Assembly: GCA_964373665.1 (NCBI GenBank)
Contig: CAYJVM010000001.1
Location: forward strand, 93,325-157,324
DNA length: 64,000 nucleotides
Origin: an uncultured archaeon
GTDB lineage: Archaea; Aenigmatarchaeota; Aenigmatarchaeia; CG10238-14; SCSR01
Direction: 5' to 3'
The notes under the pieces are model-generated. The model worked only from the letters and a program-made list of their open reading frames with translations. It searched no databases and had not been told where the DNA came from. Shown one piece after another: positions 30,555-63,803 of this stretch (positions are counted from its first letter, which is position 1; the number at the start of each line of letters is the position of its first letter). Both the position numbers and the translations under genes were made by a program.

Positions 30555-32315
30555 ATGAGCTACACAACTGTAATAAATGGGCTGGAGCTTTACAAGCATT
30601 CGGAATTCCCTGTAGTCATCGGCAATCCTAAGAGTAACCTGGCTCTGTGTGTCGTATGGCAGGATGCTGATAGAATACTCAATTTCCACCCCGAGTTCAA
30701 GGAAAAGTTCGCATTAATAGGCAATCTACGCTCTCCTTTCGGCGTCAACATCATCCTTTACAATCTCGCTCTTAATCCCCAGATAAGACACGTCGTCATA
30801 TGGGGCCCGGACAAGCTGAGCAACACGAACATAGGCCTTGCAGGAAAGAACGCCCTCATCAGCCTGTGGAGGAATGGTATTGACAGTGAGAAGCAGATAA
30901 TAGATACTCCATTCAAAATTGTCGAGGAAATAGACAGCACGGTTGTCCCGATAATTTTAAAGAACGTGCAGGTTCACGAGTCAAGCTCCCAGCAGCAGCT
31001 GGATTTGAACTCATTGCCAACTTTGCCAGATGATAGATATATGGATGCGATCATGTTTCCGGAATTCGTTGTGAAGGCGCCTGAGACGTTCCCTTCTGAA
31101 GGCTATACGTATCCGATAAGGGAGAAGAAAGGCGCGGATGCATTCTTGTCACTGCTCCACACGGTATGGAAGTACGGGCAAAAGTCGCCGATAGACAAGG
31201 ACGGGGAGGAATTGAAGGAGATAAGGGGCGCGATTGTCGTGATTGAAGGAGAAGACCCGGAGAATGTTCACTTGCCTGACTGGCTGCTTAATGCGAAAGC
31301 ACTTGGAATTTCCAAGGAAAGCTTGGACAACTACTATCAGACGCAGTTTTCGCCGGAATTATACAGGAAGGAAATTTTCAACGGGATAACTAAATTCGAG
31401 AGGCCTCGAGACTATTCATATCTTTATGCCGAACTGATGTATGCATTCCCGCGTCCGGAGGAACTGGACAACACTGTGAAGAAGCTTTTCAAGAAAGGAG
31501 GTTATGATGCTGCAAAAAGCTTCATCGTGATCAATTCAAAGCTCGACGGAGATGCGACGCAGGATGTCGTGGACAAAGTCGACCTCATTGAAATGCCGGA
31601 TGAGAAGAAAGTTGAAGTATTATTGGAAGGGCTGATTCCGGCTACTGACCAGATACAGAACGTCATCGACAGGATAAAGCGCAAGGATGTGGACTTGGAC
31701 AAGGAAGTAGTCCTTTGGGATGTCCGATACCACAGCAGGCTGGAAAGCGGAAGGCCGTGCCTGCTCAAGTTCTCCTTCACCGTTAGGAACGGCAAGGTTG
31801 ACGTGCATGTTTTTGTCAGGAGCCATGACATCGCGCAGGCATGGTTTTTCAATTTCTATGGGATAGCGAAATTGCTTGGCAGTGTTGCAAAGGAGACTGG
31901 ACATATGCCAGGGTATGTTATCATGGAATCGGAATCGGCGCACTTTTATCAGAGGGACTGGGAAACTGTTAAGAAGCTGTTGGAGGAACAAATTGATAAT
32001 AAGCAAATTAGGATGTACTTTGATCCTGAACTTGATTCGGATCCGCGCGGCGTTGTTAATATAGCAGTGGTTGATGGCAGCATAAAGATGAAGCTGCAGG
32101 ATTTGAAGACAGGTGATCTCTTGTTCGAAACTGAAGGAAAGACTGCAAAGGAACTAATGTACAAAATCAAGCACTTTCAGTTGATTTCTCGTACAGACCA
32201 CGCTGCTTTCGTAGGTTCGGAATTAGCCAAGGCGGAGATGTGTATGAAACTTGGGATAGAATACAAGTATGACAATCCTATCGAATTGCCTAGCGGAGAA
32301 AGGGTTGTAAGCTAG
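30555..32315 (+). CDS. 586-aa fusion of an unknown N-terminal domain with a thymidylate synthase (ThyA)-fold C-terminal domain
   Basis: RPCLLKFSFTVRNGKVDVHVFVRSHDIAQAWFFNFYGIAKLL...ESESAHFY matches the ThyA active-site region (PCH..QFYV...LSCQLYQRS.D..LG.PFNI.SY.LL........HIY), including the nucleophile Cys. Confidence 0.6.
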   Translation: MSYTTVINGLELYKHSEFPVVIGNPKSNLALCVVWQDADRILNFHPEFKEKFALIGNLRSPFGVNIILYNLALNPQIRHVVIWGPDKLSNTNIGLAGKNALISLWRNGIDSEKQIIDTPFKIVEEIDSTVVPIILKNVQVHESSSQQQLDLNSLPTLPDDRYMDAIMFPEFVVKAPETFPSEGYTYPIREKKGADAFLSLLHTVWKYGQKSPIDKDGEELKEIRGAIVVIEGEDPENVHLPDWLLNAKALGISKESLDNYYQTQFSPELYRKEIFNGITKFERPRDYSYLYAELMYAFPRPEELDNTVKKLFKKGGYDAAKSFIVINSKLDGDATQDVVDKVDLIEMPDEKKVEVLLEGLIPATDQIQNVIDRIKRKDVDLDKEVVLWDVRYHSRLESGRPCLLKFSFTVRNGKVDVHVFVRSHDIAQAWFFNFYGIAKLLGSVAKETGHMPGYVIMESESAHFYQRDWETVKKLLEEQIDNKQIRMYFDPELDSDPRGVVNIAVVDGSIKMKLQDLKTGDLLFETEGKTAKELMYKIKHFQLISRTDHAAFVGSELAKAEMCMKLGIEYKYDNPIELPSGERVVS

Positions 32316-33924: not shown

Positions 33925-34497
33925 TCATTTCCATCGAAAATCTTTGAAGATCTTACTCTCGTCCGACCCTTCCTGATTCTGATATTTCTCATCACCTCTT
34001 TTTCCATACGCCCTTTCCGGTGCGGATGTCAGTTTCGCAAGAGTAAGCTTTGCCACCCTCATTCCGGGATAAAGGGCAACAGGCATCTTTCCTATGTTGG
34101 CGATCTCCAAAACCAATATGCCTTCCCAACCAGGATTTATCCCTGCGGATGTTGTGTGCACGCTTATTCCCAATCTACCCAAGCTCGACCGCCCGTCAAT
34201 CAACCCCACCAGCTCCTCCGGTATTTTTATGTATTCCTTTACTGACGCAAGCACGAACTCGTCAGGGTGTATGATGAACGGCTTGTTGTCGTCTATAGTG
34301 ACAAGCTCCGTATAATTCTCCAGGGGCTGCTTAGGGTCTATGTACGGCACTGAGATGACTTTGAATATTCGGAACTCGTTTCCAAGGCGCAGATCTATAC
34401 CAGAAGGCTGTATCTGCGTGTCAGCGTCTTCCATGTTGTCTATCCTAAGCTTTCCGGAAGAAATGCATTCCTTGATGTCCCTGTCCGAAAGAATCAT
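33925..34497 (-). CDS. dcd: dCTP deaminase
   Basis: MILSDRDI, GIDLRLG, GRSSLGRLGISVH and PGWEG form the textbook Dcd pattern. Confidence 0.85.
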   Translation of the reverse strand: MILSDRDIKECISSGKLRIDNMEDADTQIQPSGIDLRLGNEFRIFKVISVPYIDPKQPLENYTELVTIDDNKPFIIHPDEFVLASVKEYIKIPEELVGLIDGRSSLGRLGISVHTTSAGINPGWEGILVLEIANIGKMPVALYPGMRVAKLTLAKLTSAPERAYGKRGDEKYQNQEGSDESKIFKDFRWK

Positions 34498-34527: not shown

Positions 34528-35187
34528 TTAAATTCTATCCTCGAATGCATTGTTCACAAAGTCCGGAGTAATTTCCCTTACAGAGTTCACAACGAAATCA
34601 GCATTCTCCATAGGTTTTCCATCGCGGGAAATTGCGACCACCTTTATTCCAGCATTCTTCGCAGACAAAATTCCAGTTGCAGAATCTTCCACCGCTATAG
34701 CATGATCATTTGAGACACCTAGACCCTCCAGGCACTTGACATACAAACCCGGATCAGGCTTTTTGTAGTCAAAGTCTGTTATCGATGAAATGAAATCGAA
34801 AAACTTGTAGAGACCATAGTATTCCAATGTCTTTTGGATTATGTCTTTCTGGCTGCCGGAGCATATTGCCAGTGAGAATCCCGCATTTTTAAGGGAAGCT
34901 ATAACATCTCTTACGCCGTCGAAGGGTTTTGAATACTTGGGTATATCCGCAAGAAAAGCACCACGCCTCTTCTTCACAAGTCCTTTGATGTCAAGCGACT
35001 GCAATTTATACTCATCCCGAATGGATTCGAGGAATTGAGTTGTTGTCCTGCCTATCTTGAACTTGATGTCGCCATCCTTCAAGTAAATGTTTTGCCCGGC
35101 CATCTCTTCCCTGAAGAACTCGAACATCGCCACTTCCGTGTTCACAATAGTGCCGTCAAAGTCGAAAATCACAGCTCGCTGCATCAT
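34528..35187 (-). CDS. HAD-superfamily hydrolase (beta-phosphoglucomutase/phosphatase-like)
   Basis: HAD motif I is AVIFDFDGTIVNTE, and the motif II and III patterns are also present. Confidence 0.7.
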   Translation of the reverse strand: MMQRAVIFDFDGTIVNTEVAMFEFFREEMAGQNIYLKDGDIKFKIGRTTTQFLESIRDEYKLQSLDIKGLVKKRRGAFLADIPKYSKPFDGVRDVIASLKNAGFSLAICSGSQKDIIQKTLEYYGLYKFFDFISSITDFDYKKPDPGLYVKCLEGLGVSNDHAIAVEDSATGILSAKNAGIKVVAISRDGKPMENADFVVNSVREITPDFVNNAFEDRI

Positions 35188-35209: not shown

Positions 35210-36163
35210 TTAAAGTTCGACCAACTTCTCATAGTTGGATGCAAGGGCCAAGGCGCCTAGAGGGACTACGTCTTCTCCTAAATTTGTTATCTCGACGCGA
35301 GGACTTCGATTGTATGCAATATGCTGCATGTGCTTTTTAATCGGGTTCAAAATAAAGTCCTTGTTGTTCACTGCGACGCTGCCACCAATAGAGATTAAAG
35401 AAACGTCGAAGGCATTGTTGACGGTGGCTATCCCTATAGCGTTCATTATGCCTATCTTCTCCAGTATATGAAGGGCCGTAGTATCCTTTCTGCCGGCGGC
35501 CTCGAATATGATTTCCGACGTAAGGTTATCCACTGAGTTCTTTGTTAGAGAAGATATAATGCTTTTCTTATACAAGTTAGTCCCGAGCAAAAACTTGGCG
35601 TAGTTCGGAATGTTTCTCCCGGAGCAGTATCCTTCCCAGTGGCCAAATCCGCCGCAGCCGCACTGGATATTACCCTCTGAGCTTACCACGACATGGCCCA
35701 TTTCTGTGGCATTTCCGTCCTTGCCGAGAATCAGCTTGTTGTTCAAAAGAACTCCGCACCCTATGCCGCTGCTGATTGTCACATAGGCAAGGTCTTTCTC
35801 GTTTTTACCATGGCCATAGAACTTTTCAGCTATAACGCCCGCATCACAATCGTTCACTATATAGACTGGGACTTTGAATTCCTTTTCCAATGGCTTGGCC
35901 AGGTCAAAGTTGTTGTATGGCAGATTAGGAGTGTTCAGAATCCTGCCTTTCTTAACGTCTAATGGACCAACAGCGCCAATGCCTATCGCGGTAAAGTTCT
36001 TTGCTTTCAACGAATTTACCATCTGTATCAGCTGGTCTATAAGCGCTTTCGAGTCTTCGCCAATTATAACCTTCTGCGTAGCCTTTTTCTTTATTTGGCT
36101 GTCGTCCCCATAACATACGCGCAAATTAGTTGCGCCCAAATCGATTCCGATCACAGATTTCAT
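35210..36163 (-). CDS. ROK-family sugar kinase (glucokinase-like)
   Basis: An IGIDLGATN N-terminus together with the CxCGxxGCxE zinc motif (CGCGGFGHWE). Confidence 0.7.
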   Translation of the reverse strand: MKSVIGIDLGATNLRVCYGDDSQIKKKATQKVIIGEDSKALIDQLIQMVNSLKAKNFTAIGIGAVGPLDVKKGRILNTPNLPYNNFDLAKPLEKEFKVPVYIVNDCDAGVIAEKFYGHGKNEKDLAYVTISSGIGCGVLLNNKLILGKDGNATEMGHVVVSSEGNIQCGCGGFGHWEGYCSGRNIPNYAKFLLGTNLYKKSIISSLTKNSVDNLTSEIIFEAAGRKDTTALHILEKIGIMNAIGIATVNNAFDVSLISIGGSVAVNNKDFILNPIKKHMQHIAYNRSPRVEITNLGEDVVPLGALALASNYEKLVEL

Positions 36164-36175
36164 ATAAACACCAAA

Positions 36176-37342
36176 TTAAGACACTATGCTAAAAGGATTT
36201 CTTTTATTAATGGCATCCTCAAGCATATTTTCAACAAGAATATTCCACGATGCAAAATTAGGAGCGGCGAGGGACTCTCCTGTCTCAGCATCATAGTTCT
36301 CATGCATACCCCCCGTACTTTCGATATCTTTCAATACTAGATTTGTTATGTTTTCAGCTAACAGAATCGCCTCCTTTTGGAGGCCGTAGTTTATCAGGCC
36401 TTGCATGTAGATGTAGTTTGAAATAATCCATATAGGACCTTGCCAATTCGAAAAGGGCTTTATAATGTTCCTGTTGTTATAGGCAGGATCATTCTTAGCT
36501 AGTGTTCTTATACCGTATTTTGCCCACATAAAATCCTCGGACAGTAGATACCTTCTGATGGTTTCTTTGCCTTCTTCCTCTCCGAGCAGTTTTCCCCACA
36601 AAGGAACGAACGAAGAATAACCAATCCTTTTAATATGACTCCCATTTTTAGTATCCAAGTTATAGAAAATTTTCTCCTTCCCATCCCACAAATGCTTTAA
36701 CATACCATTTCTTACAGATTCGGCAAGTTCCCCGAAAAGCACCTCATCGTCATCCCCTAGAGCAGATGCTATTAATTTCATCGACAGGAATTCCAAATAC
36801 ATGAATGTGTTCAAATCAGCGCCGGCTACAGAAGAATTAGGATAATCCAGGACAGCCACATTGTTGTCCGCACCAGATTCCATACTATCATACCAAACTC
36901 CCAAGTTATACTTTTTGTTCCACAAATATCTCCTTCTGTACAATACAATTTTTTTAACAGTTGCCCAATGCGGTTTTATCCATGAAAAGTCTTTAAGGAA
37001 CTTTGAAGCCAGAAATACACCTTGTGATAAAAAGGGCTTTATATGATTTAATCTCGGGTCATAGCCATTTGGAGTTAAACAACCTGCCACTTTACCATCC
37101 GCTCCGGCATTTTCTATATAGTTCAGTGCCCAGTTTTTAAGGTAAATGGAATTTCTTGGGTCTCCGACTGAAAGAGCAATCCCCATGAAAAAGCCGTCCC
37201 AATCCCACTGCTCATCATAAGGGCCACCAGGAACAAGGTAGTCGTGTTTTATTTTTCCGCTAGCGGAACGTTTAATTTTGGCTTTCATAGGTTCGATTAT
37301 TAGCTTCATGTTCTTTATCAATTCCACATTCTTAGACTTCAT
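36176..37342 (-). CDS. GH63-like (alpha/alpha)6-barrel glycoside hydrolase (mannosylglycerate/glucosylglycerate-hydrolase-like)
   Basis: Length and conserved acidic/aromatic blocks match GH63/MG-hydrolase-type enzymes. It sits next to the MpgS-like gene. Confidence 0.5.
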   Translation of the reverse strand: MKSKNVELIKNMKLIIEPMKAKIKRSASGKIKHDYLVPGGPYDEQWDWDGFFMGIALSVGDPRNSIYLKNWALNYIENAGADGKVAGCLTPNGYDPRLNHIKPFLSQGVFLASKFLKDFSWIKPHWATVKKIVLYRRRYLWNKKYNLGVWYDSMESGADNNVAVLDYPNSSVAGADLNTFMYLEFLSMKLIASALGDDDEVLFGELAESVRNGMLKHLWDGKEKIFYNLDTKNGSHIKRIGYSSFVPLWGKLLGEEEGKETIRRYLLSEDFMWAKYGIRTLAKNDPAYNNRNIIKPFSNWQGPIWIISNYIYMQGLINYGLQKEAILLAENITNLVLKDIESTGGMHENYDAETGESLAAPNFASWNILVENMLEDAINKRNPFSIVS

Positions 37343-37354
37343 TACTACTGCCTC

Positions 37355-38815
37355 TCAACTTTTGACGGAATGTCTTACGCTTTCCCAATCTACGACATCC
37401 AGTGCTCTCAGCATTTCCATGCTTGGAAGAACATAGTCAGATGTGACATCAACTAGGACATTTCCGTGGTGGTCATTCGGATTCGGGACTGAAATGCTTC
37501 TTATTCTGCCACCATATCGGCCGTTAAAATCGCTAATATCATCCTCTTTCCATTCGTGGAATAGTCGTCCTCTCCTTTCAATCTGCCTTGATATATCGGT
37601 CAGAAATAGTGCGCAGTTGGTTATTAGCGCATACTCTCTGTCTCTTGGGCTGTAATAGTTTTCTATCTTTGGATTCGGATTGGCCGTTTGCATGAAGTAT
37701 CTTGCACCACCTCGGACATCTACGCCTGTCAAGTAAACATCTATGCCAGTTTCAACCCCCATTCCAGTGGCCAAATGCATATGTCGAGTCAAATCTACAA
37801 CACCATCCCCAACTGTTAACTTACCCGATAACAAACGCTCACCGCTTAAAGGCCAACCAAGTGTTCCCAAAAGGGTCGTAAGTTTAACCATATCATCGTC
37901 TTCCGAGCTGGCGCATATCAGGTTATTTGCGGCGAACCAAGGCTCGTTGTTCCTGCCTTCACCAGTTTTCAACAAATTAACACCATGAACGTCTCCTACT
38001 GGATATGCTAGTGGTATCGCCAAATGCTCCAATGCATGATATTCGGGATGTTGGCCGTTTCTTCGCGAGTGACCTGGATTTACTATGTCAGTATCATGCA
38101 TAACCAAGGATGTGTCATATAGATTCATTGTGGATTCGAGTGCAACAAGACCTGCGTATACAGTCATGCCTTTCGAGCCTCTTGGAGGTACGGGAAACTT
38201 TGGAGGTACAATCTCCAACCTTTTCAACTGTGCCCAATCAACATACCTCAAAACTTCTTTCTGGTCCGCGACTCTTGCACCTGTTCTTCTAGCCTCATAA
38301 GTGGCGGCTTCTTGTGTTCCAGCGTCAATTGCCAAGACATTTTCGATGCCTACAAGTTCTCCAGCGTATCTTATTACATCGGCGATCGTATTTGACTCCC
38401 CCGCAAAAGGCAGAAGCACTCTTACAGAACGCGATCTAAGCGTGTCTCTCGCCCTTTCAATAATGAAATCGTTGTTTCCGTCAAAAATGTCCACATTATA
38501 TCTCCCACCATTATCAGATACAGGGGAATTATAAATTCCACAAGAAGCCAAGGATTCCCTAACGGAGACCAATTCCTCCGGACCTGTGGTGTGGTAGACT
38601 GGTCTTCCCTCTTGACTCGTATCTATGTAAATGCCGCCTTGGTGATTTCCTCTTCTATAGTCTACCAAAGCTTGCAACCATCTGCCTAGTTCAGAAGGAG
38701 GATTTTCATAAGGCGCAAAACCTTTATGAGAATCAAAGAAGCGCCTTTCGCTAGATGTCATAAGAGGGACACCCGAATAAGATTTATTTACCATGTAATT
38801 TTGTTTACTCAACAT
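37355..38815 (-). CDS. mannosyl-3-phosphoglycerate synthase-like glycosyltransferase (GT55-like)
   Basis: The blocks VLLPFAGESNT, GSKGMTVYAGLVALE and MHDTDIVNPG parallel the MpgS motifs (IVPMKNE, GKGEGMLVGLLLAK, FVDADNYIPG). Confidence 0.5.
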   Translation of the reverse strand: MLSKQNYMVNKSYSGVPLMTSSERRFFDSHKGFAPYENPPSELGRWLQALVDYRRGNHQGGIYIDTSQEGRPVYHTTGPEELVSVRESLASCGIYNSPVSDNGGRYNVDIFDGNNDFIIERARDTLRSRSVRVLLPFAGESNTIADVIRYAGELVGIENVLAIDAGTQEAATYEARRTGARVADQKEVLRYVDWAQLKRLEIVPPKFPVPPRGSKGMTVYAGLVALESTMNLYDTSLVMHDTDIVNPGHSRRNGQHPEYHALEHLAIPLAYPVGDVHGVNLLKTGEGRNNEPWFAANNLICASSEDDDMVKLTTLLGTLGWPLSGERLLSGKLTVGDGVVDLTRHMHLATGMGVETGIDVYLTGVDVRGGARYFMQTANPNPKIENYYSPRDREYALITNCALFLTDISRQIERRGRLFHEWKEDDISDFNGRYGGRIRSISVPNPNDHHGNVLVDVTSDYVLPSMEMLRALDVVDWESVRHSVKS

Positions 38816-38934
38816 TCAATAAAAATCCGACCTAAAGACAGTTTTATATAGTGGCATAAGTACGACTGAAACACGGCTTAGAACAGCCTAATACAGAAAA
38901 AATAGGTTTTAATCCTAAAAGATGAATTTTAGCA

Positions 38935-39582
38935 TCATGGATTAATTTCCCGCAAAACTGTCCTGGCGGCTTCAAGAAAATTGTTCACTATGTAAGCCCT
39001 TCCTGCATTTTCATGAATTCTAAACGTCCTTGCATAGTCTCTTCTATTTCTACCATTGTAAATCAAAATGCCGCTACCGTTGGCATTTAACCCAGTCTCA
39101 ACATCTGTAGACCTATCGCCTATAAAGTAGACTTGCAACTCATCCAACGGATAGCCCAAATCTTTTGCGGCTTGTTCAAGCATGCTATTCCGTGGTTTTC
39201 GTGTGTGATTCTCTGTTACATAATCCTCATTGTATGGAACACCCCTCCTTCGCCATCTTTCAGCATATCTATGGCTTACTTGCGGTGCATAGTACCAGCC
39301 ATCAATTTGCACTCCATTTTCTCTGAGCATAGAATCCAGATGTGCGTTTACTTTTCTAACCCGTTCCTCTGTAAGAACGCCTCTTGCGACGCCCGACTGG
39401 TTCGTAGCCACAACAAGTCTTATCCTTTCATCCCCTTTCAATACTTTTAATCCATCAACAACTCCATCGCACAGTGCTAAATTATCCCGCCAGTCGTCAT
39501 CCTTTCCAAAAAAGCCGTTAGTATCGTCGTAATGCAGTGTATTGTCTCTGTCCAGGCCAACTAAAATTATAGGACTGTCCAT
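38935..39582 (-). CDS. HAD-IIIA phosphatase (GmhB/histidinol-phosphatase-like)
   Basis: VGLDRDNTL (DxD), VVATNQSG, and a downstream K...GDRSTD motif. Confidence 0.6.
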   Translation of the reverse strand: MDSPIILVGLDRDNTLHYDDTNGFFGKDDDWRDNLALCDGVVDGLKVLKGDERIRLVVATNQSGVARGVLTEERVRKVNAHLDSMLRENGVQIDGWYYAPQVSHRYAERWRRRGVPYNEDYVTENHTRKPRNSMLEQAAKDLGYPLDELQVYFIGDRSTDVETGLNANGSGILIYNGRNRRDYARTFRIHENAGRAYIVNNFLEAARTVLREINP

Positions 39583-39590
39583 ACAAACAC

Positions 39591-42500
39591 TTATGCCGCA
39601 TCTATGTCAGGTGCTCTTCCCCTATTCTGCTCAAGATACTTCATCAGTGCAGGTATGTGCTCAGGGGATATGCCTATGCCCGTCTGCCTTCCCATCTGGC
39701 TGTAAGCTTGCCTAACTTCAGTCTCAAGTCTATTCAAATATCTCACGCCATATTTGTCAAAGCCGAAATCGAATTGAATTATCTTTCCGCTGTCGTCGAA
39801 ATAGGCAGGAGTGTGTTCAAACCTTCCTTCATGCTTCTCCTTGATTTCGGATGGTATCTGGCTGTCCAGTACGCCTACATTGCAGTAAATCATTGTAGGT
39901 CCATCAATGCTGTATGCAGAGAATGGCCACACCTTGCCGCTTCTAGTTCTGTCGCCTCTTATTATAAGCGGCATTAGAGCAGTGTTCCATAGTTGGAAGG
40001 AATAAGGAACCTTTTGCTCTCCTTCCTTCAAAGTAGATCTGTAAACGTCAACGGTTCTTTGGAACTCCTTGTTTCCTCTTAATTTTGCCATGTCTTCTTC
40101 TGTCTTTCCTGCATGAGAATAATCCACATCAGTGAATCCTAAAGCGTCGTTAATCGCGACTACTTGATTCAAGTAGCCTTGGTATGCATCAGGATATCTT
40201 GCGGCTCTGTCCGTAGAGTCTCTTGCAACCAGATTCTTGGTTCCGTCTACAACTAGTATAACAGGTTGGTCGTTTGCTATTCTTGTTCTGTAACCTTTGA
40301 AAAGCCCGCTGTTTAAGACCTCTTTGTTGTTATGGCTTTCGGTCGACCCGACTTTAACTCCGATTATATAATCGACCCCCAGTGTATCATCGTCTGTTAG
40401 GGGCGCCACTGGAAGATACCCATAGCTTAGGTTCGGTGCGATAACTACATCCATACCAAGTTCTTGCGCTCTTACCTTTACACTTCTAACATAATCTTCA
40501 AGCAGCCGCACCTCGTATGCTGCACATTCGACTTCGAACTTGGAAAGCGCGTCGAAAGGTTCGACATCCGAATCTATGCTGAAAATCGTTTCGTACGCGG
40601 TGTATGTGATGTGGTTTTTCAAAAATCTTTTCACTTTCTCGTGGTCTACTATGTCCCTGAATCTCGTGTATTCAAGGTTCCTATGTAGCTCGTTTTCCGG
40701 ATCGAAGTTTCCTTCTCCAAATCCATTTAGTTCAGTTTTCCAGTCGGCAACAATTTTCCTCGGACTTTCTGCAGCCGACAAGCTGTGCATCAAATAAGTC
40801 GTGGGGATAATACCTTTTCTTTCCATTGATACAAAATATCTATGCAAGTCTCTGAATGTAGAGGCGCCAGTTTCCACTTCCCCGAACAGCTCTTCCCATC
40901 CGTCCAATGTGGAAAGTTCGTATGCTGTCCTGATGGCAGTTTTTGGCCTCTCGGACATATAGCCTTGGTAATGCTCGAATGCTGCCTCATGGACGCGCAG
41001 ACTTGAAACAAACTTGCCGAGAACATTAGTTTCATACGGATCCAAACCGTTTCTTAGAGCCTCTCTCACAAAAAGGTTGGTTGTCTGCTGACTAGCACCT
41101 TCAGTTGCGGCTACCAAGTTGCGAATGCTGGACGTTGCTGGATAGTTATCGAATGGGAAAATCCTCGCTACTTCCTCGTCACCAAGCGCCCTTAAATACG
41201 GCAACATATAACTTCTCGCTGAAGGTTTTTCCATCACCGCATGTATAACTTTCTGCTGCTCCTTTCTAACTTGTTCTTCAAACCTTTCTGGGTACGCAAT
41301 ATCTCCGACATCCGTTAGAAACGCTTCAAATTCTCTGAGCTCCTGTAGAAATGTCGGAAATCTATAGCTATGGTCTGTGATTAGCTTGTATCTGCGGTTT
41401 CCTATCATACCTCTGACATTAAAGCCGAACTGACCATTCCAATATTCTTGAACTCTCTCAGATCCTATTTCCCTTAAATAATCGAACGCCCACTCGCTGA
41501 TCGGCTCCATGCTCCCGCCGAAATGTAAAATGCTATTGGCCTCGTCCATTACGGCCTCTGGATTTCTAGACCCTTGCGCTATACTTTCAACTTCTTCCAT
41601 ATACTCTGCAATACCTCGCAAGTGGTTAGCAACAGCTTCAACTCCAGAAAACCCTTCAATGCCGTAAGCAATTTTTTGATCAAACATATCGCCATATTTT
41701 CTTATGACAGGCAGTTTGTCTTCCAACCCGAGTGAAGATGCAATTGCAGTCACTACACGGTCTCTGGTTGAATCCTTCTCTTCATCTGGAACATAAGTTG
41801 CATACGGCAGCAAATTCACTGCCAGCCCCAATGCAAAATACCTTTCCCTATCACTGCCATGAGTCATATAGTGCGATGCCATATTGAAAAGCGCCTCTCT
41901 GAATCCTGGGTTGTAACTGGGGTAATCCCAGTGGCTATCGTCGCGAATTACAGCACCTTCCTTAACCATTCGGACAGCATCCATCATGCCAGGCACCTTC
42001 AAGCCTTCAAGATATTTCAACTCTTCTCCATTCAACGAACCGATGAATTCTTCTGCCTTGCCTGAAAACGGCGCCCTAGTCCACTGCCACCTCCCTCTCC
42101 AGAGATTCATCACCGCATAAGGCAGATGCTCGCCTTGTTTGAATCGGTAAACTTTGTAACCTAACCTGCCGAATTCATCCCCTATGTGCTCACCTGATGC
42201 GGGTGGTACAACAAGCAGTCTGCTCCAAAGCTCTTCAAGTACATACCTATCGAATCCGGCAAGAGCATCTTCGCCGAACAATGCCTTCATTTGATCGTCA
42301 GATCTAGCAACTTCCCAGCTGTCAATGTCAAGAGAATTCACATCGACAGGTGTACCTACCCTTTGTTTAAGTTTGTCGTATCGGCTGGTAAATTCTACAC
42401 CAGGATCATATCTGGACATCTTATAGGTTTGCCTTAGCAAACTTACAACATCTGCGAGGCTTTCCGGTATTTCTACCCTATGTGAAAATCTGTATAACGA

Positions 42501-43538
42501 GTCTACAATATCTTGGAATATTTCGTCATGCCTTCTTCCATCATGACTAACATTCGGTAGATAACGAGTTACAAAATCTCGCAATCCATAAGGCAGCGCT
42601 TGAACTCTTTCATTCAAGCTGTCCAGCTGTTCGATTTCTTGTGGATACTTAAATCTAAAACTCAGCCAGTCAGCCTTTGGCAACTGGAAATGCATACCGG
42701 CAAAGACGAGTCTTACAGCTTCATCTACATCTTCTTTCTCATATCTTCTATCTTCTCTTTCATAGTTCCCATTTTTTATAACATCTGCAAAATCAGGTAA
42801 AACTTTCTTTTCGATATAACCATTCAACAGGGAACTTCTCTGAGAATCAGTCAACTTTGGCGATTCTCCTGTATTTTCCAATACACTCAATTGCGCATCA
42901 TATTCCGTCACCAGCCGCGATACAAGAATTGTGTAAAGTTCACGCTCCAGACTTTGGATATCAAAGCTTCTGTCTGAATAATAAGAACTGTACCAGCCCA
43001 TTTTTCCTGCTCTGCGAGTCGCAGCAAACAGCGCGTCTATTTTGACATTAAGAGAATCGACTTGCATCTGGTAACCTGCGGGGCGCGTGCGCCCAAGTTC
43101 TCTTGTTTCGTTGATCAAACGCTCAACCCTTTCATATACATCCCATTCGGCAGCGACCCCCACTTCTTCATAAATTCTGCGAACAGCAACTTCTTTTGCG
43201 TGCTTACCTCGGCTGGCTTTCGCCTTTGCAACAGCATTCATCCGCTTCAAGTATTCTAGCTTTTGCCGCATAGCTCCCGCTCCATCTGCTAAATCATCAA
43301 TACCTATAGTAGGATCAAACATGCGTCTTAGTGCCATCCTATCTTTCAAATAGGCCAACTCGAAGCATATGTATTTGTCAGCGCCATTGATTTCATCATT
43401 CCACGACTTTAGTACTTCAGCTATCTCATCGGGACTCGTTGATTCTGGATTAAAATCGGCCTGTAGTTCCGGCTCGGAAAATAATGCATTCGCTTCCTGG
43501 TATAATCTCTTTAAAATTTCATCACTCATCATTCCCAC
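39591..43538 (-). CDS. very large (1315 aa) protein of unknown function
   Basis: An uninterrupted 3.9-kb ORF with ~50% GC and codon usage consistent with its neighbours. No motif I recognise. Confidence 0.6.
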   Translation of the reverse strand: MGMMSDEILKRLYQEANALFSEPELQADFNPESTSPDEIAEVLKSWNDEINGADKYICFELAYLKDRMALRRMFDPTIGIDDLADGAGAMRQKLEYLKRMNAVAKAKASRGKHAKEVAVRRIYEEVGVAAEWDVYERVERLINETRELGRTRPAGYQMQVDSLNVKIDALFAATRRAGKMGWYSSYYSDRSFDIQSLERELYTILVSRLVTEYDAQLSVLENTGESPKLTDSQRSSLLNGYIEKKVLPDFADVIKNGNYEREDRRYEKEDVDEAVRLVFAGMHFQLPKADWLSFRFKYPQEIEQLDSLNERVQALPYGLRDFVTRYLPNVSHDGRRHDEIFQDIVDSLYRFSHRVEIPESLADVVSLLRQTYKMSRYDPGVEFTSRYDKLKQRVGTPVDVNSLDIDSWEVARSDDQMKALFGEDALAGFDRYVLEELWSRLLVVPPASGEHIGDEFGRLGYKVYRFKQGEHLPYAVMNLWRGRWQWTRAPFSGKAEEFIGSLNGEELKYLEGLKVPGMMDAVRMVKEGAVIRDDSHWDYPSYNPGFREALFNMASHYMTHGSDRERYFALGLAVNLLPYATYVPDEEKDSTRDRVVTAIASSLGLEDKLPVIRKYGDMFDQKIAYGIEGFSGVEAVANHLRGIAEYMEEVESIAQGSRNPEAVMDEANSILHFGGSMEPISEWAFDYLREIGSERVQEYWNGQFGFNVRGMIGNRRYKLITDHSYRFPTFLQELREFEAFLTDVGDIAYPERFEEQVRKEQQKVIHAVMEKPSARSYMLPYLRALGDEEVARIFPFDNYPATSSIRNLVAATEGASQQTTNLFVREALRNGLDPYETNVLGKFVSSLRVHEAAFEHYQGYMSERPKTAIRTAYELSTLDGWEELFGEVETGASTFRDLHRYFVSMERKGIIPTTYLMHSLSAAESPRKIVADWKTELNGFGEGNFDPENELHRNLEYTRFRDIVDHEKVKRFLKNHITYTAYETIFSIDSDVEPFDALSKFEVECAAYEVRLLEDYVRSVKVRAQELGMDVVIAPNLSYGYLPVAPLTDDDTLGVDYIIGVKVGSTESHNNKEVLNSGLFKGYRTRIANDQPVILVVDGTKNLVARDSTDRAARYPDAYQGYLNQVVAINDALGFTDVDYSHAGKTEEDMAKLRGNKEFQRTVDVYRSTLKEGEQKVPYSFQLWNTALMPLIIRGDRTRSGKVWPFSAYSIDGPTMIYCNVGVLDSQIPSEIKEKHEGRFEHTPAYFDDSGKIIQFDFGFDKYGVRYLNRLETEVRQAYSQMGRQTGIGISPEHIPALMKYLEQNRGRAPDIDAA

Positions 43539-43674
43539 CCTTCAAATACGATTTTACTGCATATTCAATCAAATGGCTTTTATTCCTAAATAAGCCTTCT
43601 GCTACTTTAGCTTCTATGTCCTTTATGGTCTTCCCGTCTATGGATATGCTTACTTTCTGTTTCATGTCACCATC

Positions 43675-44694
43675 TCAACCTTCATAGAATCTGTTGTAAA
43701 GCTGCCTATATTCTTGGGACGGAATCACCAATCTACCATTATCGACAATCAGCCTTCCATTGTGTACAAATCTGTAAGGACGGCTATACGGTGGGTTGAA
43801 ACCAAAGTGTCTAGTTTCACCATCAACTTCAATAACAGCTTCTCCTGTTGGAATAAAATATGCCATCCCTACACCACAATCTCCTATTATGTGAAGATAT
43901 GCATCACCCATTCCGTAAGCAGGTCGCCATCCAGTCGATCCGTTCAATGTCACCCTACCACCTTCCAAATTCTTTGCAAAAAAATCCCCAACATTGCCGT
44001 TGATAACTAACTCGCCGCTTTGTCTACCGCTGGCCAGATTGTCAAGCAGATGGGCTTTCCTTCGATAGTCATCATAAGTACCGCCTATACCCCACACTTT
44101 ATTCCAAGAATCCCCTACTCTGGGGAACATTGATTCCCTAGTAACCCCATATCTCTTGAATAAATTTCCCGCCGCGCGATCAGCATAAAACGACGCACCT
44201 AAAAACTGGGGATGCCGAAGTGCAAGTCTGCTCAATGATTCTAATCCACGCTCAACCGCCTCATATACGATCTGAGGTACATTGCGTGTAGGCTCCCAAA
44301 AGTGATGGGGAAAAAATGAGGGGTTTTTCGTAGTCTCAAGCTCAATTTTCTCCGTACCTCGGTCAAAAAGGCGACAAGTGAGTCCAGATACATACCAACC
44401 AAGTGCTGGAAGATTTTCGTGATTTTCAAATCTTCCCAGCTCAGATACAAGCCTATTTACATCGTCTTGAGTGTAGACTTCCAAATTGTCTATCATGCTT
44501 CTCGCCAATAAAGATGGAGTTACTGAAACTAGCATATCGCGTTCATGAATTTCCCTACGCCCTACATTAAAATCATTCATCATCTGAATGTTTTGGTTTT
44601 CGGTATGTCTATCTTGTGCAAACTTTCGGGTTAAAAATGCAATTGCATAGTCCTGTATCATTGAATAAGACATTTTCTCACCAACTCCTATCAC
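43675..44694 (-). CDS. protein with GXGXG beta-helix domain (glutamate-synthase C-terminal/FwdC-like)
   Basis: GELVINGNVGDFFAKNLEGGRVTLNGSTGWRPAYGMGDAYLHIIGDCGVGMAY is a typical GXGXG-repeat region. Confidence 0.5.
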   Translation of the reverse strand: MIGVGEKMSYSMIQDYAIAFLTRKFAQDRHTENQNIQMMNDFNVGRREIHERDMLVSVTPSLLARSMIDNLEVYTQDDVNRLVSELGRFENHENLPALGWYVSGLTCRLFDRGTEKIELETTKNPSFFPHHFWEPTRNVPQIVYEAVERGLESLSRLALRHPQFLGASFYADRAAGNLFKRYGVTRESMFPRVGDSWNKVWGIGGTYDDYRRKAHLLDNLASGRQSGELVINGNVGDFFAKNLEGGRVTLNGSTGWRPAYGMGDAYLHIIGDCGVGMAYFIPTGEAVIEVDGETRHFGFNPPYSRPYRFVHNGRLIVDNGRLVIPSQEYRQLYNRFYEG

Positions 44695-45377
44695 GGGCTG
44701 TTCCTATACCTGATATTCACATCTCTAATCTCCGGCTGCGTCCCGACCATCTCGTCTGGATTTTTCTTCAAATAACGCCCAAAAAGCTTATGCCCTATCC
44801 TCCTCTGCACTCCATCATACCAAGTTCCCTGGCCAAGAGTGCCTGCAAATCTGGATGCTTTTCCAAGGCCGTTAAATGCAAGATAAGTTGTAAGAGCCGC
44901 TGCAGCAGTTTCTACAGGCATATCTGAAACATTGTTTGAGAGATTAACCATCGCATTCCATATGGCGTTTGTATCAAGCTGTTTGACGACATCATAAAGC
45001 TCCATCATGCCTTGTCCAGCCACCTTTGCCGAATCAACAGCCTTGTTGAAATAATCCAAAGCTTCTGCAATTCTAGGAGGGAATGTATTGATAGATTCTT
45101 TAGCCTTACCAAGATAATCTGTCCCAACATTAGCGCCAGCTGACACCTTGTCAAGACCATCGTCTATCTTCGCAACATTTTCCAAGTTCCTCAAGGTCCT
45201 TGCATAATTGTTAATAAAATCAGGAGCTGCTCTTAATCCGTCTCCTACCTTTTCAAAATAGTTCCGGCCATCACCCAGAAGAACCCCAGGAATGCTAGCG
45301 CTCCCTAAAGCGCCGAAAAGATGCGGGCCTGCAAATCCTGCAGTTTTCCTAATGCTTCTTCCTAATCCATATAGCAT
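44691..45377 (-). CDS. hypothetical protein
   Basis: An ORF in the operon that overlaps its upstream gene by 4 nt. Confidence 0.4.
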   Translation of the reverse strand: MLYGLGRSIRKTAGFAGPHLFGALGSASIPGVLLGDGRNYFEKVGDGLRAAPDFINNYARTLRNLENVAKIDDGLDKVSAGANVGTDYLGKAKESINTFPPRIAEALDYFNKAVDSAKVAGQGMMELYDVVKQLDTNAIWNAMVNLSNNVSDMPVETAAAALTTYLAFNGLGKASRFAGTLGQGTWYDGVQRRIGHKLFGRYLKKNPDEMVGTQPEIRDVNIRYRNSP

Positions 45378-45383
45378 AATATA

Positions 45384-46025
45384 TCACCTAGGCCTAGGAA
45401 ACGCTTGATTGCTTGCGGCTGCATAAAAGTCCTTAAATTCTCTGCTACTCAAAAGATCCACATAAGGACCGCGATCCGTATATCTTCCCTGTCGTCTTGC
45501 ATTGCTGTCTATCTCGCAAACGACATCCCATGCTTCACGTCCCAAACCTCTTTCTAGCAAGCGATAACCAAGACCTGTTTTAACATCCATATAATTTTCG
45601 AATTCTTCGGGGCTTAGGCGCAGACCAGTAGCGCTTTTCCTCAAGGTCATTCGACCCTCAGGTTCTGGATTAAAATCAAGTTCTCTGCTATAACCCGCGT
45701 CTCTCAAATAACCAGCGACCTCTTCCATTCTATCTTCGGGTATAGGGTTAACGTAAACTAGCCGGTTGGTACATTCCGCCGCTAGCTGGTTGGTAAATGC
45801 CGCCGGGCGGTTTGGCAGCAAAGTGTATCCCGCAGGCTCCAACTCACCTACATAGAACCCGCCTACCAATGTATAGCTTGGATAGTTTTTTAGAGCAATG
45901 TCCCCAAGTCTTGTTGGGGCAACTGTAATGCCAGTGAAAGAGTCACTTTGAAACAGATGTGGCCAGCCATCTTCCAACAGCGCTTCTCTAAGCACTTCAA
46001 CTGCATTTCCGGTTTCATAACCCAT
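45384..46025 (-). CDS. hypothetical protein
   Basis: The first gene of the GC-enriched minus-strand operon. Confidence 0.4.
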   Translation of the reverse strand: MGYETGNAVEVLREALLEDGWPHLFQSDSFTGITVAPTRLGDIALKNYPSYTLVGGFYVGELEPAGYTLLPNRPAAFTNQLAAECTNRLVYVNPIPEDRMEEVAGYLRDAGYSRELDFNPEPEGRMTLRKSATGLRLSPEEFENYMDVKTGLGYRLLERGLGREAWDVVCEIDSNARRQGRYTDRGPYVDLLSSREFKDFYAAASNQAFPRPR

Positions 46026-46108
46026 ACCATATCACTTATTACTACCTAGTAGTATTTACTAGTATTTAAGCATTTCGGTACTTTAGTACATATTAGTAGT
46101 TACAATTT

Positions 46109-46456
46109 TTAAAATAACTTCAAAAGTTCTTCTTTGACTTTTCTAAAGGTAGCTTCGTTTATCTTACCCAAGTTTTTAATAGCGGACGTTTTCTTTAATG
46201 TGAATATTGCATTGGTTTTTATTCGACTAGGTTGAGGTAAGAAACCATATTCAAGGTCATTTTGATCTATTAGAACGGAATAATCTACATTACGAATGTT
46301 AGAAGTTAATCCGCAAGATATGAAATCTTCTAATTTTCGATTAATTCCGCTTTTTGATAATACAACTACTGGCCTTTTTTTACTTGCTTTCAAATCTGTA
46401 AACGGAAAAGATATAAGAATTATTTCTCCTTGTTCAAAGTTTATTCCAGATTTCAT
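46109..46456 (-). CDS. mazF: MazF/PemK-family endoribonuclease toxin
   Basis: GEIILISFPFTDLKASKKRPVVVLS is the PemK/MazF signature. Confidence 0.7.
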   Translation of the reverse strand: MKSGINFEQGEIILISFPFTDLKASKKRPVVVLSKSGINRKLEDFISCGLTSNIRNVDYSVLIDQNDLEYGFLPQPSRIKTNAIFTLKKTSAIKNLGKINEATFRKVKEELLKLF

Positions 46457-46700
46457 CTTCTTTGTTCTCCCATAAGTCTTTAGCTACTTTCTCAGCATGT
46501 TTAAGCATATAATCAAACTCTCGAGCAAATCTTTTAGATGCTTTAGCAGATTTTTCAATTAGTAACTTATCACCTTTCTTCACTATGAGTAATTCTTCAC
46601 CCTTTCTAATTTTCATTTCCCTTCTGATATCAGATGGGATGGCGATTTGTCCTTTTTGTGAAACTCGTATCGTTTTAAACTTCAATTCATCTTTCAACAT
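46434..46700 (-). CDS. mazE: AbrB/MazE (SpoVT-AbrB domain) antitoxin
   Basis: RVSQKGQIAIPSDIRREMKIRKGEEL is a swapped-hairpin AbrB motif. The gene overlaps the toxin gene. Confidence 0.6.
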   Translation of the reverse strand: MLKDELKFKTIRVSQKGQIAIPSDIRREMKIRKGEELLIVKKGDKLLIEKSAKASKRFAREFDYMLKHAEKVAKDLWENKEDEIWNKL

Positions 46701-54509: not shown

Positions 54510-54635
54510 GGGCCCGTAGCTCAGCATGGTAGAGCAGCTGATGCCAAGTTGAAGCTTTTAACCATGTGTGAAAAAGCATTGATTCCCAGATGAAAGGAAA
54601 CCAGTTGGTCGAGGGTTCAAATCCCTCCGGGCCCA
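54510..54635 (+). tRNA. tRNA-Gly(GCC) with ~50-nt intron (Trp not fully excluded)
   Basis: The acceptor stem is GGGCCCG/CGGGCCC, the D-arm is GCTC-AGCATGGTA-GAGC, the anticodon loop is ATGCCAA with U33, the T-arm is GAGGG-TTCAAAT-CCCTC, and the discriminator is A. Confidence 0.65.
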
Positions 54636-60548: not shown

Positions 60549-60633
60549 GGGCCCATAGCTCAGCATGGTAGAGCAGCTCGCTCTTAATTTTGGGGTTACG
60601 AGACGGTCAAGGGTTCGAATCCCTTTGGGCCCA
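60549..60633 (+). tRNA. tRNA-Lys(CTT) with ~11-nt intron
   Basis: The acceptor stem is GGGCCCA/TGGGCCC, the D-arm is GCTC-AGCATGGTA-GAGC, the anticodon loop is CTCTTAA, and the T-arm is AAGGG-TTCGAAT-CCCTT. Confidence 0.7.
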
Positions 60634-60752
60634 CTGCCGTTTGGGTTTGAAACCCCTTTAAGGACACTGAATCCGTACTTCGATGGGTCCGGAGACGGAC
60701 CGGCGTCGACAGGGCCAGCATTGGACTCTTCGGTTTCAGCGGAGGGTCTGCC

Positions 60753-61217
60753 GTGTCGGTGCTGGTAGCGGGTACACGTCCAAGCTGGGTGAAGTCTCTG
60801 GTCGTATACACGCTGCCATGCGACCTCTCCGGCTACCTGTGGTATTTCGAAAGGTTCGCTCCTCGCTCGCTGGATCGTTTCTATACGGACGGGAAGGCTT
60901 GGCTCCCTGGTTTGGGGGACTATCTGAAGAGGTCGTTTCTAGACGACCTCTTCAACCACAATATCAAGCGAGAGATTGCGCGCCTAAGGATACCGATGCT
61001 GCTGATTCAGCCAGACAACGATGACGAGGTGCCAAAATGGTGCAGCGACCAAGCGTATGAGCTAAAACCAGAACCGAAGAACTATTTTCTCATCAAAGGG
61101 ACTCATACTATGCATTTGCGTGACGCCTCAGGTGGGCCAACTGGTTGGAACTTTGAACAGGAGGAAGAAGTGACCGGAAAGACGTTGGAGTGGTTCAAGA
61201 CAACGCTCTCAACGTGA
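60753..61217 (+). pseudogene. C-terminal fragment of an alpha/beta-hydrolase (dienelactone-hydrolase/peptidase-like)
   Basis: IPMLLIQPDNDDEVP and KGTHTMHL resemble the catalytic Asp and His blocks. No N-terminal nucleophile-elbow region is present. Confidence 0.4.
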
Positions 61218-61706
61218 GAGATAGACCGACCGTTGAAACTCGAGGACGTCAGACAAACATAGTGAGAATGGGCCGAGGATGGTGTCTACCTCCGTTTCAC
61301 CCAAGGCCATTCTATAGCCGCGCGAGTCATCGATCACGTGTATCCACTCGATGTACGGTACGTAACGAGGCAGGGCTGATCCTACAGCCTGGTACCCGGC
61401 CAATTGGCCACGGATGGTTAGGAGTTTGAGCGGGTTGGACAAGGTGAACTGGATGGCACTCTTAAATTCCCCGGGACGGCCGCCGAGCCGTGTCTGGTCA
61501 CGATATCCCTTTAGGTGGCCGAACAGGAAGTCCTCTCCGGGGAGAAGCGGGTGGGTTGATCCAAGCTGAATTTGGCGTCGATAACCCTCCTCGCTCATAA
61601 CATGCGTGGTTAGCAGCACCGGCTCGCCGTACTTAAACGGGTGCTTCATGAACATGTCGTCCACTGGGGAATAAAACGTCTGTAACAACCCTTCCATAAT
61701 AATCAA
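61209..61706 (-). CDS. hypothetical protein in GC-rich insert
   Basis: An ORF with ~58% GC. Confidence 0.3.
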   Translation of the reverse strand: MIIMEGLLQTFYSPVDDMFMKHPFKYGEPVLLTTHVMSEEGYRRQIQLGSTHPLLPGEDFLFGHLKGYRDQTRLGGRPGEFKSAIQFTLSNPLKLLTIRGQLAGYQAVGSALPRYVPYIEWIHVIDDSRGYRMALGETEVDTILGPFSLCLSDVLEFQRSVYLSR

Positions 61707-61724
61707 ATTATATTGTGCACTTGA

Positions 61725-62045: not shown

Positions 62046-62090
62046 AGCCTTCCTCCCTGGTGAAATGATGAGATTCCGGGGCTCGATGTA

Positions 62091-63789: not shown

Positions 63790-63803
63790 TCCCTTTGGGC
63801 CCA
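63790..63803 (+). repeat. direct repeat identical to the 3' end of tRNA-Lys (tccctttgggccca)
   Basis: A 14/14 match to 60620-60633. It is preceded by gtgccgg and marks the return to AT-rich sequence. Confidence 0.7.

Follow-up and report, generated by a model that had tools for sequence, protein, structure and literature searches.

A rare GpgS-related glycosyltransferase beside a putative ribbon-helix-helix and giant-protein gene pair in an archaeal locus

Introduction

Does an array of minus-strand genes that places a glycosyltransferase next to a 1315-amino-acid (aa) protein of no recognisable family encode one pathway or two? The array lies in a 64,000-nucleotide (nt) stretch of contig CAYJVM010000001.1 from an uncultured archaeon (hereafter the window, meaning the whole stretch that was analysed), whose intron-bearing transfer RNA genes and DUF1512 gene point to an archaeal host. 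An earlier note made from the letters alone had described positions 37355 to 46025 as a GC-enriched operon of six tightly packed genes, and proposed that a transferase like mannosyl-3-phosphoglycerate synthase (MpgS) of family GT55, a phosphatase, a GXGXG beta-helix protein and the giant protein might form a single, larger pathway. The six minus-strand open reading frames (ORFs) are present where that note placed them. We find that the 486-aa transferase, GT486, is a distant, unclassified and rare branch of the clade of glucosyl-3-phosphoglycerate synthase (GpgS) and MpgS, is GT81/GpgS-like and is not a GT55 member. The flagged array most likely comprises two neighbouring co-directional transcription units, judged from its sequence and gene order: Unit A (46105-38935), which ends with a HAD-IIIA phosphatase gene, and Unit B (38815-34528), which begins with GT486. 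The explanation that we favour overall, at a probability of roughly 60%, joins a glucosyl-glycerate-type module in Unit B to a module of a ribbon-helix-helix (RHH) protein and the giant protein in Unit A.

Results

We first consider GT486, whose sequence places it far from any described family. A search of 5.8 billion proteins recovered seven relatives besides GT486 itself (32-48% identity), and a Pfam scan assigned it to no family at E<=0.01, PF09488 (Osmo_MPGsynth) being the family that we take to represent GT55. The NCBIfam GpgS model NF010496 scored 30.5 bits against a cut-off of 262, with the match confined to residues 115-192, and with a profile of the GT486 family, PDB chains of GpgS were matched at no better than E~2e-3. 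We used AlphaFold2 with an 8-sequence alignment to model GT486 (mean predicted local distance difference test score (pLDDT) 76, predicted template-modelling score (pTM) 0.83) and compared the model to the PDB with Foldseek. All 45 matches at E<=1e-3 are glycosyl-3-phosphoglycerate synthases, the next match falling at E=5e-3, and they comprise GT81 GpgS from M. tuberculosis and M. hassiacum, MpgS from Rubrobacter and the GT55 MpgS enzymes of Pyrococcus and Thermus. The GT55 structures 2zu7-9 and 2wvk are significant fold matches (E 3e-9 to 6e-7), and target-normalised template-modelling (TM) scores are 0.61-0.73 for the GT81 hits including Rubrobacter MpgS versus 0.47-0.53 for GT55. The description of GT486 as an MpgS-like GT55 enzyme thus captures a true kinship with glycosyl-3-phosphoglycerate synthases in fold and catalytic motifs and errs on the family, since GT486 falls in no Pfam family and stands closer to GT81.

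Alignment of the GT486 family to M. tuberculosis GpgS (MtGpgS), whose sequence was checked against PDB entry 3e25 beforehand, reveals a shared catalytic architecture (hhalign, 97.8% probability, E=4.7e-12, 279 columns). MtGpgS residues E54, K114, D134/D136, R185 and E232 correspond to GT486 E140, K215, D241/D243, R288 and E355, and the PLSGE motif corresponds to P322-E326; apart from the Leu and Ser of PLSGE, these positions are invariant across the 8-member family. In GpgS, Glu54 binds ribose, Asp134, Lys114 and Glu232 form a network, Asp136 of the DxD motif binds metal and PLSGE forms a loop (PMC2581804). The serine of this loop has been argued to disfavour mannose (PMC2581804), and its presence in GT486 therefore favours glucose over mannose as the donor. 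The acceptor side has changed: GpgS Val186 and Thr187, which contact the glycerate carboxylate (PMC2581804), are replaced by N289 and N290, Y229 is replaced by M352, and the metal-binding His258 (PMC2581804) aligns with N379 in a low-confidence stretch. With these positions altered, the acceptor of GT486 could differ from (phospho)glycerate. Relative to GpgS, GT486 also carries extra segments of ~115 residues at the N terminus and ~100 at the C terminus.

The partners of GT486 are fixed across genomes (positions of all features in Table 1). In 4/4 other distinct genomic contexts, which span bacterial-looking and archaeal-looking contigs of 33-44% GC, a GH63 gene directly follows the GT486 homolog, and a sugar kinase of the ASKHA, hexokinase-like type comes next wherever the contig extends that far. 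The GH63 protein of the window is 47-52% identical to these partner proteins, GT486 identities being 37-45%. As the earlier note had proposed, the genes downstream of GT486 encode GH63, ROK and HAD proteins. GH63 scores above cut-off with both PF22422 (106.8 bits) and PF03200 (78.3 bits) and has alpha-glucosidase I and T. thermophilus TTHA0978 as its nearest PDB neighbours; the ROK protein matches PF00480 at 190 bits and, as its best NCBIfam match, the ATP-dependent glucokinase model NF045551 (E=4e-63, below cut-off); and the HAD-IA protein matches PF13419 at 131 bits and TIGR02009 at 90 bits, the latter below cut-off. The kinase is a ROK protein in the window and hexokinase-like in the other triads, and such non-orthologous replacement at a fixed position indicates that a sugar kinase is needed there. 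No phosphatase gene adjoins the triads elsewhere, which leaves room for an acceptor without a phosphate group.

Table 1. Features of the array and its flanking signals (positions in the window)
Feature	Position	Strand	Remarks
Promoter/operator-like region of Unit A	46042-46105	minus	nhmmer profile match
hyp213, 213 aa	45384-46025	minus	First gene of Unit A
hyp228, 228 aa	44691-45377	minus	Ala/Gly-rich orphan, Unit A
339-aa protein (GXGXG339)	43675-44694	minus	C-terminal FwdC-type beta-helix (weak match), Unit A
RHH gene, 47 aa, CopG-like	43522-43665	minus	Called gene and translation, Unit A
1315-aa protein	39591-43538	minus	N-terminal ~880-aa module and domain X, Unit A
HAD-IIIA (GmhB-like) phosphatase, 215 aa	38935-39582	minus	TIGR01662, last gene of Unit A
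Spacer, 119 nt	38816-38934	minus	T6 run and TATATAAA box
GT486, 486-aa retaining GT-A glycosyltransferase	37355-38815	minus	GpgS/MpgS fold, first gene of Unit B
Short GH63 (MGH1-like) alpha-glucosidase-type hydrolase	36176-37342	minus	PF22422 and PF03200, Unit B
ROK sugar kinase, glucokinase-like	35210-36163	minus	PF00480, Unit B
HAD-IA (beta-phosphoglucomutase-like) hydrolase	34528-35187	minus	PF13419, Unit B

On the best reading, Unit B is a make-and-recycle module for an alpha-glucosyl-glycerate-type compound, with predicted substrates and a predicted direction of flux. GT486 would transfer glucose from a nucleoside diphosphate (NDP)-glucose to 3-phosphoglycerate (3-PGA) or glycerate, a HAD phosphatase (HAD-IA in the unit, possibly the neighbouring HAD-IIIA) would remove the phosphate if one is present, GH63 would hydrolyse the glucoside once it is no longer needed, and the ROK kinase would phosphorylate the released hexose and so return it to metabolism. 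The glycosyl-glycerate-type compatible solute suggested previously therefore persists as the best reading of the GH63, glucokinase-like ROK and HAD genes around GT486, shifted from a mannose to a glucose type. As a side observation, the GT486-GH63-kinase triads of loci L002/L003, L009 and L006/L007 lie near PGK, FBPase and FBP-aldolase genes, and one triad directly follows a RuBisCO large-subunit gene.

The acceptor is also the point at which a different product for Unit B deserves consideration. The unit might make and trim a different alpha-glucoside, for instance a disaccharide of the kojibiose type, the head group of a glycolipid or a glycan primer; the GpgS-like fold would then have been co-opted for a new acceptor. 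The substitutions at V186/T187 and Y229, the extra ~100-aa N- and C-terminal segments of GT486 and the triads without a conserved phosphatase would all suit such a role, as would GH63, whose best solved relative is processing glucosidase I, an enzyme that cleaves Glc-alpha-1,2-Glc. We nevertheless consider this alternative unlikely, as GT486 retains R185, the GGR-type loop, PLSGE and the entire donor site, its significant fold matches are exclusively glycosyl-3-phosphoglycerate synthases, and several triads lie near 3-PGA-producing glycolytic genes, for example PGK.

We divided the array in two because of the spacer ahead of GT486, the TATA-like box within it and synteny. The spacer carries a T6 run followed by the TATATAAA box ~33 nt upstream of the GT486 ATG at 38815, and TATA-like boxes similar to TATATAAA also precede other genes of the window that come first in their operons. 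The run and the box suggest a separate transcription start for GT486, and the 119-nt spacer is likely a unit boundary. Within Unit A, neighbouring genes are at most 9 nt apart and at the other extreme overlap by 8-17 nt, according to which start is assumed for the 1315-aa gene. The tight packing that the earlier note described therefore applies to this first group; the count of six overlooked a seventh gene, encoding the RHH protein, and the packing is interrupted by the spacer after HAD-IIIA. Gene order elsewhere agrees with the division: the conserved partners of GT486 all lie downstream of it in 4/4 other distinct contexts, none of the Unit A genes was found near GT486 homologs in the other loci examined, no GT486 or GH63 gene was found near homologs of the giant protein in the loci examined, and the only sequence-conserved partner of the giant protein is the RHH gene.

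The RHH gene starts 9 nt past the stop codon of the 339-aa gene and extends into the beginning of the 1315-aa gene. In nine independent foreign loci, mostly from DPANN metagenome bins (L012, L013, L014, L016, L018, L019, L020, L021 and L029; L027, from the same organism as L016, was left out), an ortholog immediately precedes the gene for a homolog of the giant protein. Seven of these orthologs, all but those of L016 and L020, were aligned and share 45-53% identity with the window copy; the match is weaker in two of the nine loci, and the RHH ortholog is kept even in loci whose giant protein is without domain X, the C-terminal domain described below. The protein has a strand-helix-helix pattern and aligns with CopG (PDB 1b01) over 43/45 columns (hhalign, E=1.6e-4, 50% probability). 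A PHROG Arc-like repressor gave a marginal match (E=0.039), and an HMM (hidden Markov model) search of the PDB returned only chance zinc-finger matches. BLAST clustering of ORFs of at least 70 aa found no conserved neighbours of the giant protein, the size filter having hidden the RHH gene, and a small family of apparent neighbours ("F3") was rejected because it came from reading the RHH gene and its promoter in the wrong frame. No tRNA or Rfam element was found upstream of the giant-protein homologs.

Seven foreign loci share a conserved stretch of ~80 nt ahead of the RHH gene. This stretch contains a BRE/TATA-like (BRE, transcription factor B recognition element) sequence, CGAAAnATTTAAATA, flanked by ACTAC/GTAGT palindromes. 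An nhmmer profile made only from those seven foreign upstream sequences was run against both strands of the whole window. The best match, at 46105-46042 (-) with E=0.0059, is intergenic, lies directly upstream of hyp213 and carries the BRE/TATA-like CGAAATGCTTAAATA flanked by ACTAC/GTAGT-type palindromes. A second, weak match of the same profile occurs at 9852-9888 (+) (E=0.18), with no RHH-like ORF adjoining. The promoter match and the close spacing of the genes suggest one unit that runs from the operator through hyp213, hyp228, GXGXG339, RHH and the 1315-aa gene to HAD-IIIA. On this reading, three orphan genes would lie between the ancestral promoter and its RHH gene; they are likely co-transcribed with the RHH-giant-protein pair, and the CopG-like protein would repress Unit A through the palindromes of the 46042-46105 region. 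Unit A is best explained as a lineage-specific elaboration of a recurring DPANN-type two-gene module that pairs a CopG-like candidate repressor with a large, probably cytoplasmic protein.

The giant protein justifies its earlier description as a protein without a recognisable family: it has no Pfam, NCBIfam, PADLOC or PHROG match, and it does not resolve into known glycoside-phosphorylase or transferase domains, a result that by the earlier note's own account would have told against its proposal. A word-indexed homolog search found only the protein itself. HMMER searches of 1.84 billion representatives recovered 206 related clusters, seven of which are full-length homologs (33-37% identity); most of the remainder share only the C-terminal ~380 residues (domain X, residues ~905-1282), and a few match the N-terminal region only. 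The N-terminal ~880-aa module is confined to DPANN-type homologs, and among species-representative genomes relatives occur in Woesearchaeota and Nanoarchaeota bins and in bins labelled "Methanosarcinales". Pfam searches at E<=10 with the full-length relatives and 11 isolated X domains gave nothing consistent, and PDB sequence-profile searches with X gave chance matches only. AlphaFold2 modelled X from a 40-sequence alignment with mean pLDDT 90.2 and pTM 0.89, as a helical N-terminal portion that leads into a core of mixed alpha/beta structure. Foldseek with this model returned nothing below E=0.04 in the PDB (TM<0.2) and nothing below E=0.25 in BFVD. The remote-homology and structure check proposed in the earlier note thus yields a confident model of X, with no known family or fold matched.

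Conservation within X points to a probable active site. Residues kept in at least 90% of 99 domains include E1002, E1009, N1036, Y1039, G1040, S1065, H1069, D1098, P1116, D1117, N1124, H1242, D1248 and D1249. The model places N1036 and D1098 at the C-terminal tips of the two parallel strands and puts S1065 and H1069 at a helix start, an arrangement suggesting that the conserved residues form a catalytic site, possibly metal-dependent. A SIS phosphosugar or GmhA-like identity for X, an idea that came from Foldseek SIS matches (probability <=0.21) and the motifs NLSYG and GSTESH, was rejected after hhalign comparison with GlmS, AgaS and FrlB (0.6% probability).

The domains that accompany X recur across its relatives. 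Thirteen multidomain relatives include eight with HEAT repeats, four with a fused HAD phosphatase, three with SLOG, one with a metallophosphoesterase and one in which uridine-/adenylate-kinase-like, TreT-like GT4, GlnD-type nucleotidyltransferase and PHP domains all occur in a single protein. A ~130-aa insertion occupies the same position of X in P0020 (residues 1177-1307) and P0051 (residues 959-1093) and is weakly HAD-like in P0020 (E=0.002), and a HAD-IA gene follows the giant-protein homolog in L013. This recurring phosphatase link, the sole pointer to a function, suggests that X acts on a phosphorylated sugar or nucleotide, where it would work together with a phosphatase. For stand-alone X proteins, the contigs were too short to show gene context. 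In two giant-protein homologs (L018 9665-13603 and L019 9842-13765), the RHH gene and the N-terminal ~850 aa are retained, and a different stretch of ~450 aa without annotation forms the C terminus where X would otherwise stand. Immediately upstream of the L019 homolog is a metallophosphoesterase gene.

The associations of X bear on whether the array could be one operon after all, running from hyp213 to HAD-IA and encoding a larger, uncharacterised glycoside or polymer pathway in which the giant and GXGXG proteins act on the transferase product. All genes are co-directional, the HAD-IIIA gene sits between the giant-protein and transferase genes, and X recurs with HAD phosphatases and, once, with a TreT-like GT4 domain and nucleotide kinases in a giant protein, company whose sugar-phosphate chemistry would fit a neighbouring transferase. 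A scan of the region for bacterial-type promoters and terminators, which does not cover archaeal signals, gave counts at chance level, and so no terminator-like signal above chance. Against a single operon stand the 119-nt spacer with its T-run and TATA-like box, the three upstream hypotheticals unique to the source genome, and the fact that no other genome examined links GT486 or GH63 with Unit A genes. The single pathway proposed in the earlier note is thereby weakened, its glycosyl-glycerate-type reading being kept for the downstream half, and we regard a one-operon arrangement as rather improbable.

We hold it similarly doubtful that Unit A is a selfish or conflict module, toxin-antitoxin- or effector-like, in which the RHH protein acts as antitoxin or repressor and the giant protein is an enzyme with a swappable C terminus that is toxic or serves host interaction. 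A small RHH gene followed and overlapped by a large one recalls type II toxin-antitoxin operons; L018 and L019 exchange the C-terminal domain and keep the N-terminal ~850 aa and RHH; X occurs in giant proteins together with SLOG, nucleotide kinase and phosphoesterase domains, which are typical of conflict systems centred on nucleotides; and Unit A has an atypical composition and a MazE/PemK pair immediately upstream. Yet there are no PADLOC matches and only marginal PHROG matches (E 0.006-0.085), no relatives in the viral contigs or plasmids searched and no room in a 47-aa RHH protein for a toxin-binding tail, and the flanks in other loci include housekeeping genes, among them those for topoisomerase and an M17 aminopeptidase, with no mobility or defence genes among the flanking genes examined. 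The MazE/PemK toxin-antitoxin pair itself, at 46109-46700 (-) between metK and hyp213, has a GC content of 0.30-0.33.

The remaining genes of Unit A are a phosphatase and three orphans. The 215-aa protein is a HAD-IIIA hydrolase, as previously assigned (TIGR01662, 76.1 bits versus a cut-off of 44.6); its gene begins 8 nt after the 1315-aa gene, it carries the DRDNT motif D11-R-D-N-T15, and its best PDB match is E. coli GmhB (E=1.4e-14). Searches with hyp213 gave no Pfam, NCBIfam, PADLOC or PHROG match and no relative in the fetched loci or viral contigs; those with hyp228 gave no significant family match beyond marginal PHROG hits (E 0.016-0.085). For the 339-aa protein, whose gene overlaps that of hyp228 by 4 nt, the search of 5.8 billion proteins found only itself. 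The GXGXG domain previously ascribed to this protein survives as a weak FwdC-type beta-helix signal at residues 218-300, with a formylmethanofuran dehydrogenase subunit C chain as the best PDB match (E=2.7e-4; FwdC chains at E 3e-4 to 1e-2, residues ~218-285 only); it has no Pfam match, and TIGR03122 falls far below its cut-off (23 versus 131 bits). All three orphans form singleton clusters, lack relatives in every locus, viral contig and family library that was searched, and appear soluble, with no transmembrane segments in a simple hydropathy scan.

The flagged stretch differs from its surroundings in amino-acid and codon composition, not in GC. Its GC content is 0.441, against 0.434 for the window as a whole and 0.433 once the stretch itself is left out; this is 0.5 standard deviations above the mean of equal-length windows, 22% of which reach at least this value; the GC shift reported earlier disappears when recomputed in this way, an outcome that the earlier note had itself named as counting against its proposal. 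The lysine share K/(K+R) is 0.17-0.48 in the flagged genes versus about 0.5-0.8 in most longer neighbouring genes, and GC content at third codon positions is 0.36-0.43 versus 0.5-0.6 in neighbours. Horizontal origin of GT486 from its arginine-rich composition was considered and rejected, because the same bias occurs in every homolog: K/(K+R) is 0.33-0.42 in the GT486 homologs, each of which lies beside a lysine-rich GH63 partner at 0.64-0.82. A low lysine share common to all homologs is a family trait and not evidence of transfer, and a lysine/arginine bias can more generally belong to a protein family without indicating horizontal transfer. No paralogs of the genes studied were found within the 64-kb window.

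Several observations concern other parts of the window. The only clearly GC-raised stretch is 60700-64000 (0.52-0.54), where ORFs encode arginine mostly with CGN codons, unlike the rest of the window; Rfam places a tRNA on its left edge (60549-60633), called by ARAGORN at 60549-60634 with an odd four-base anticodon, and found no rRNA there. Two over-long Rfam tRNA matches of 113 and 126 nt, at 13508-13620 (+) and 54510-54635 (+), are probably intron-bearing and were missed by ARAGORN, and a partial Rfam tRNA match lies at 9000-9054 (-). Beside Unit B, at 30555-32312 (+) and 33925-34497 (-), a 586-aa fusion of thymidylate synthase and a pterin-binding DUF4346 domain and two nearby dCTP-deaminase-family genes make up a small dNTP-metabolism cluster.

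Discussion

Our analysis describes a rare, unclassified family of GpgS-related transferases with a fixed GH63 and kinase partnership, and an unannotated module of RHH and giant protein whose C-terminal domain has no family assignment and is modelled with confidence. Should its assignment prove right, GT486 would add a strongly diverged and very rare branch to the clade of glycosyl-phosphoglycerate synthases (GT81/GT55), and its fixed pairing with GH63 and a kinase predicts a self-contained cycle that makes and recycles a glucosyl-glycerate-like solute. GT486 carriers have low-GC genomes, some of which look like small-genome archaea or bacteria, and the triad, if correctly read, would mark an undescribed solute or glycoside cycle in small-genome microbes. 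The RHH and giant-protein pair is recurring and unannotated in the DPANN-type loci fetched and is a well-defined target in archaeal "dark matter"; for the giant protein, our analysis names a candidate regulator, a candidate operator that is conserved, and the residues that probably form the active site. A bolder, joint reading is that GT486 founds a CAZy-level family and that X is an unrecognised enzyme fold, present in ~200 clusters that range from proteins of DPANN archaea to giants of 3000-5500 aa with HEAT repeats, acting with HAD phosphatases on a phosphorylated sugar or nucleotide and under the control of a dedicated CopG-like repressor in DPANN. We advance this combination tentatively, at somewhat worse than even odds.

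Several points weigh against our preferred explanation of two units with a glucosyl-glycerate-type module in Unit B and an RHH and giant-protein module in Unit A. For Unit B, the GT486 model is moderately confident only (mean pLDDT 76, 8-sequence alignment), the acceptor-contacting T187 is Asn in the GT486 family and the metal-binding H258 aligns, uncertainly, with Asn, GH63 scores 23.9 bits with the glucosylglycerate-hydrolase model NF047898 (cut-off 550), and the triads of other genomes have no adjacent phosphatase. For Unit A, the promoter match at E=0.006 is modest, a HAD gene adjoins the giant protein in only two of ~ten DPANN-type loci (the window and L013), and the finding that X has no fold match comes from Foldseek against the PDB and BFVD only. 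The division into units draws solely on the spacer, the TATA-like box and synteny, and transcription may read through from A into B.

Comparison with known systems sets the two units against four references. GmhB is the best solved relative of the HAD-IIIA protein and shares its DxDxT motif; the HAD-IIIA protein falls below the equivalog cut-offs (NF006506, 87 versus 178 bits; TIGR00213, 80 versus 150 bits), and no GmhA, HldE or other heptose-pathway gene lies near it. Like CopG/Arc repressors, the 47-aa RHH protein has a strand-helix-helix pattern, aligns end to end with CopG and is encoded by a gene that overlaps the next, and, as in autoregulated CopG/Arc operons, palindromic ACTAC/GTAGT sites flank a TATA box in the RHH-gene loci, where DNA binding is predicted only. 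In contrast to those operons, the RHH gene here is paired with a gene for a ~1300-aa protein and not with a replication or toxin gene, and in the window three unrelated genes separate it from the candidate operator.

The MpgS (GT55) and MpgP pair of Pyrococcus and Thermus, like the genes studied here, combines a glycosyl-3-phosphoglycerate synthase with a subsequent HAD phosphatase. MpgP is a Cof-type HAD-IIB enzyme, whereas the phosphatases here are of HAD-IIIA and HAD-IA types and the PLSGE serine argues for glucose. A parallel to Unit B comes from mycobacteria, where synthesis by GpgS and hydrolysis by the GH63 glucosylglycerate hydrolase GgH are described (PMC5381378, PMC6608630); a GH63 hydrolase partner likewise occurs in Unit B. 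Mycobacterial GpgS (GT81, Rv1208) and GT486 have the GT-A fold and the E54, K114, DxD, R185, PLSGE and E232 positions in common, at an identity of only about 20-27%. The mycobacterial genes are dispersed and the phosphatase GpgP (Rv2419c) is a histidine-phosphatase-type enzyme, whereas Unit B places its synthase, hydrolase and kinase genes side by side and has a HAD protein as its candidate phosphatase.

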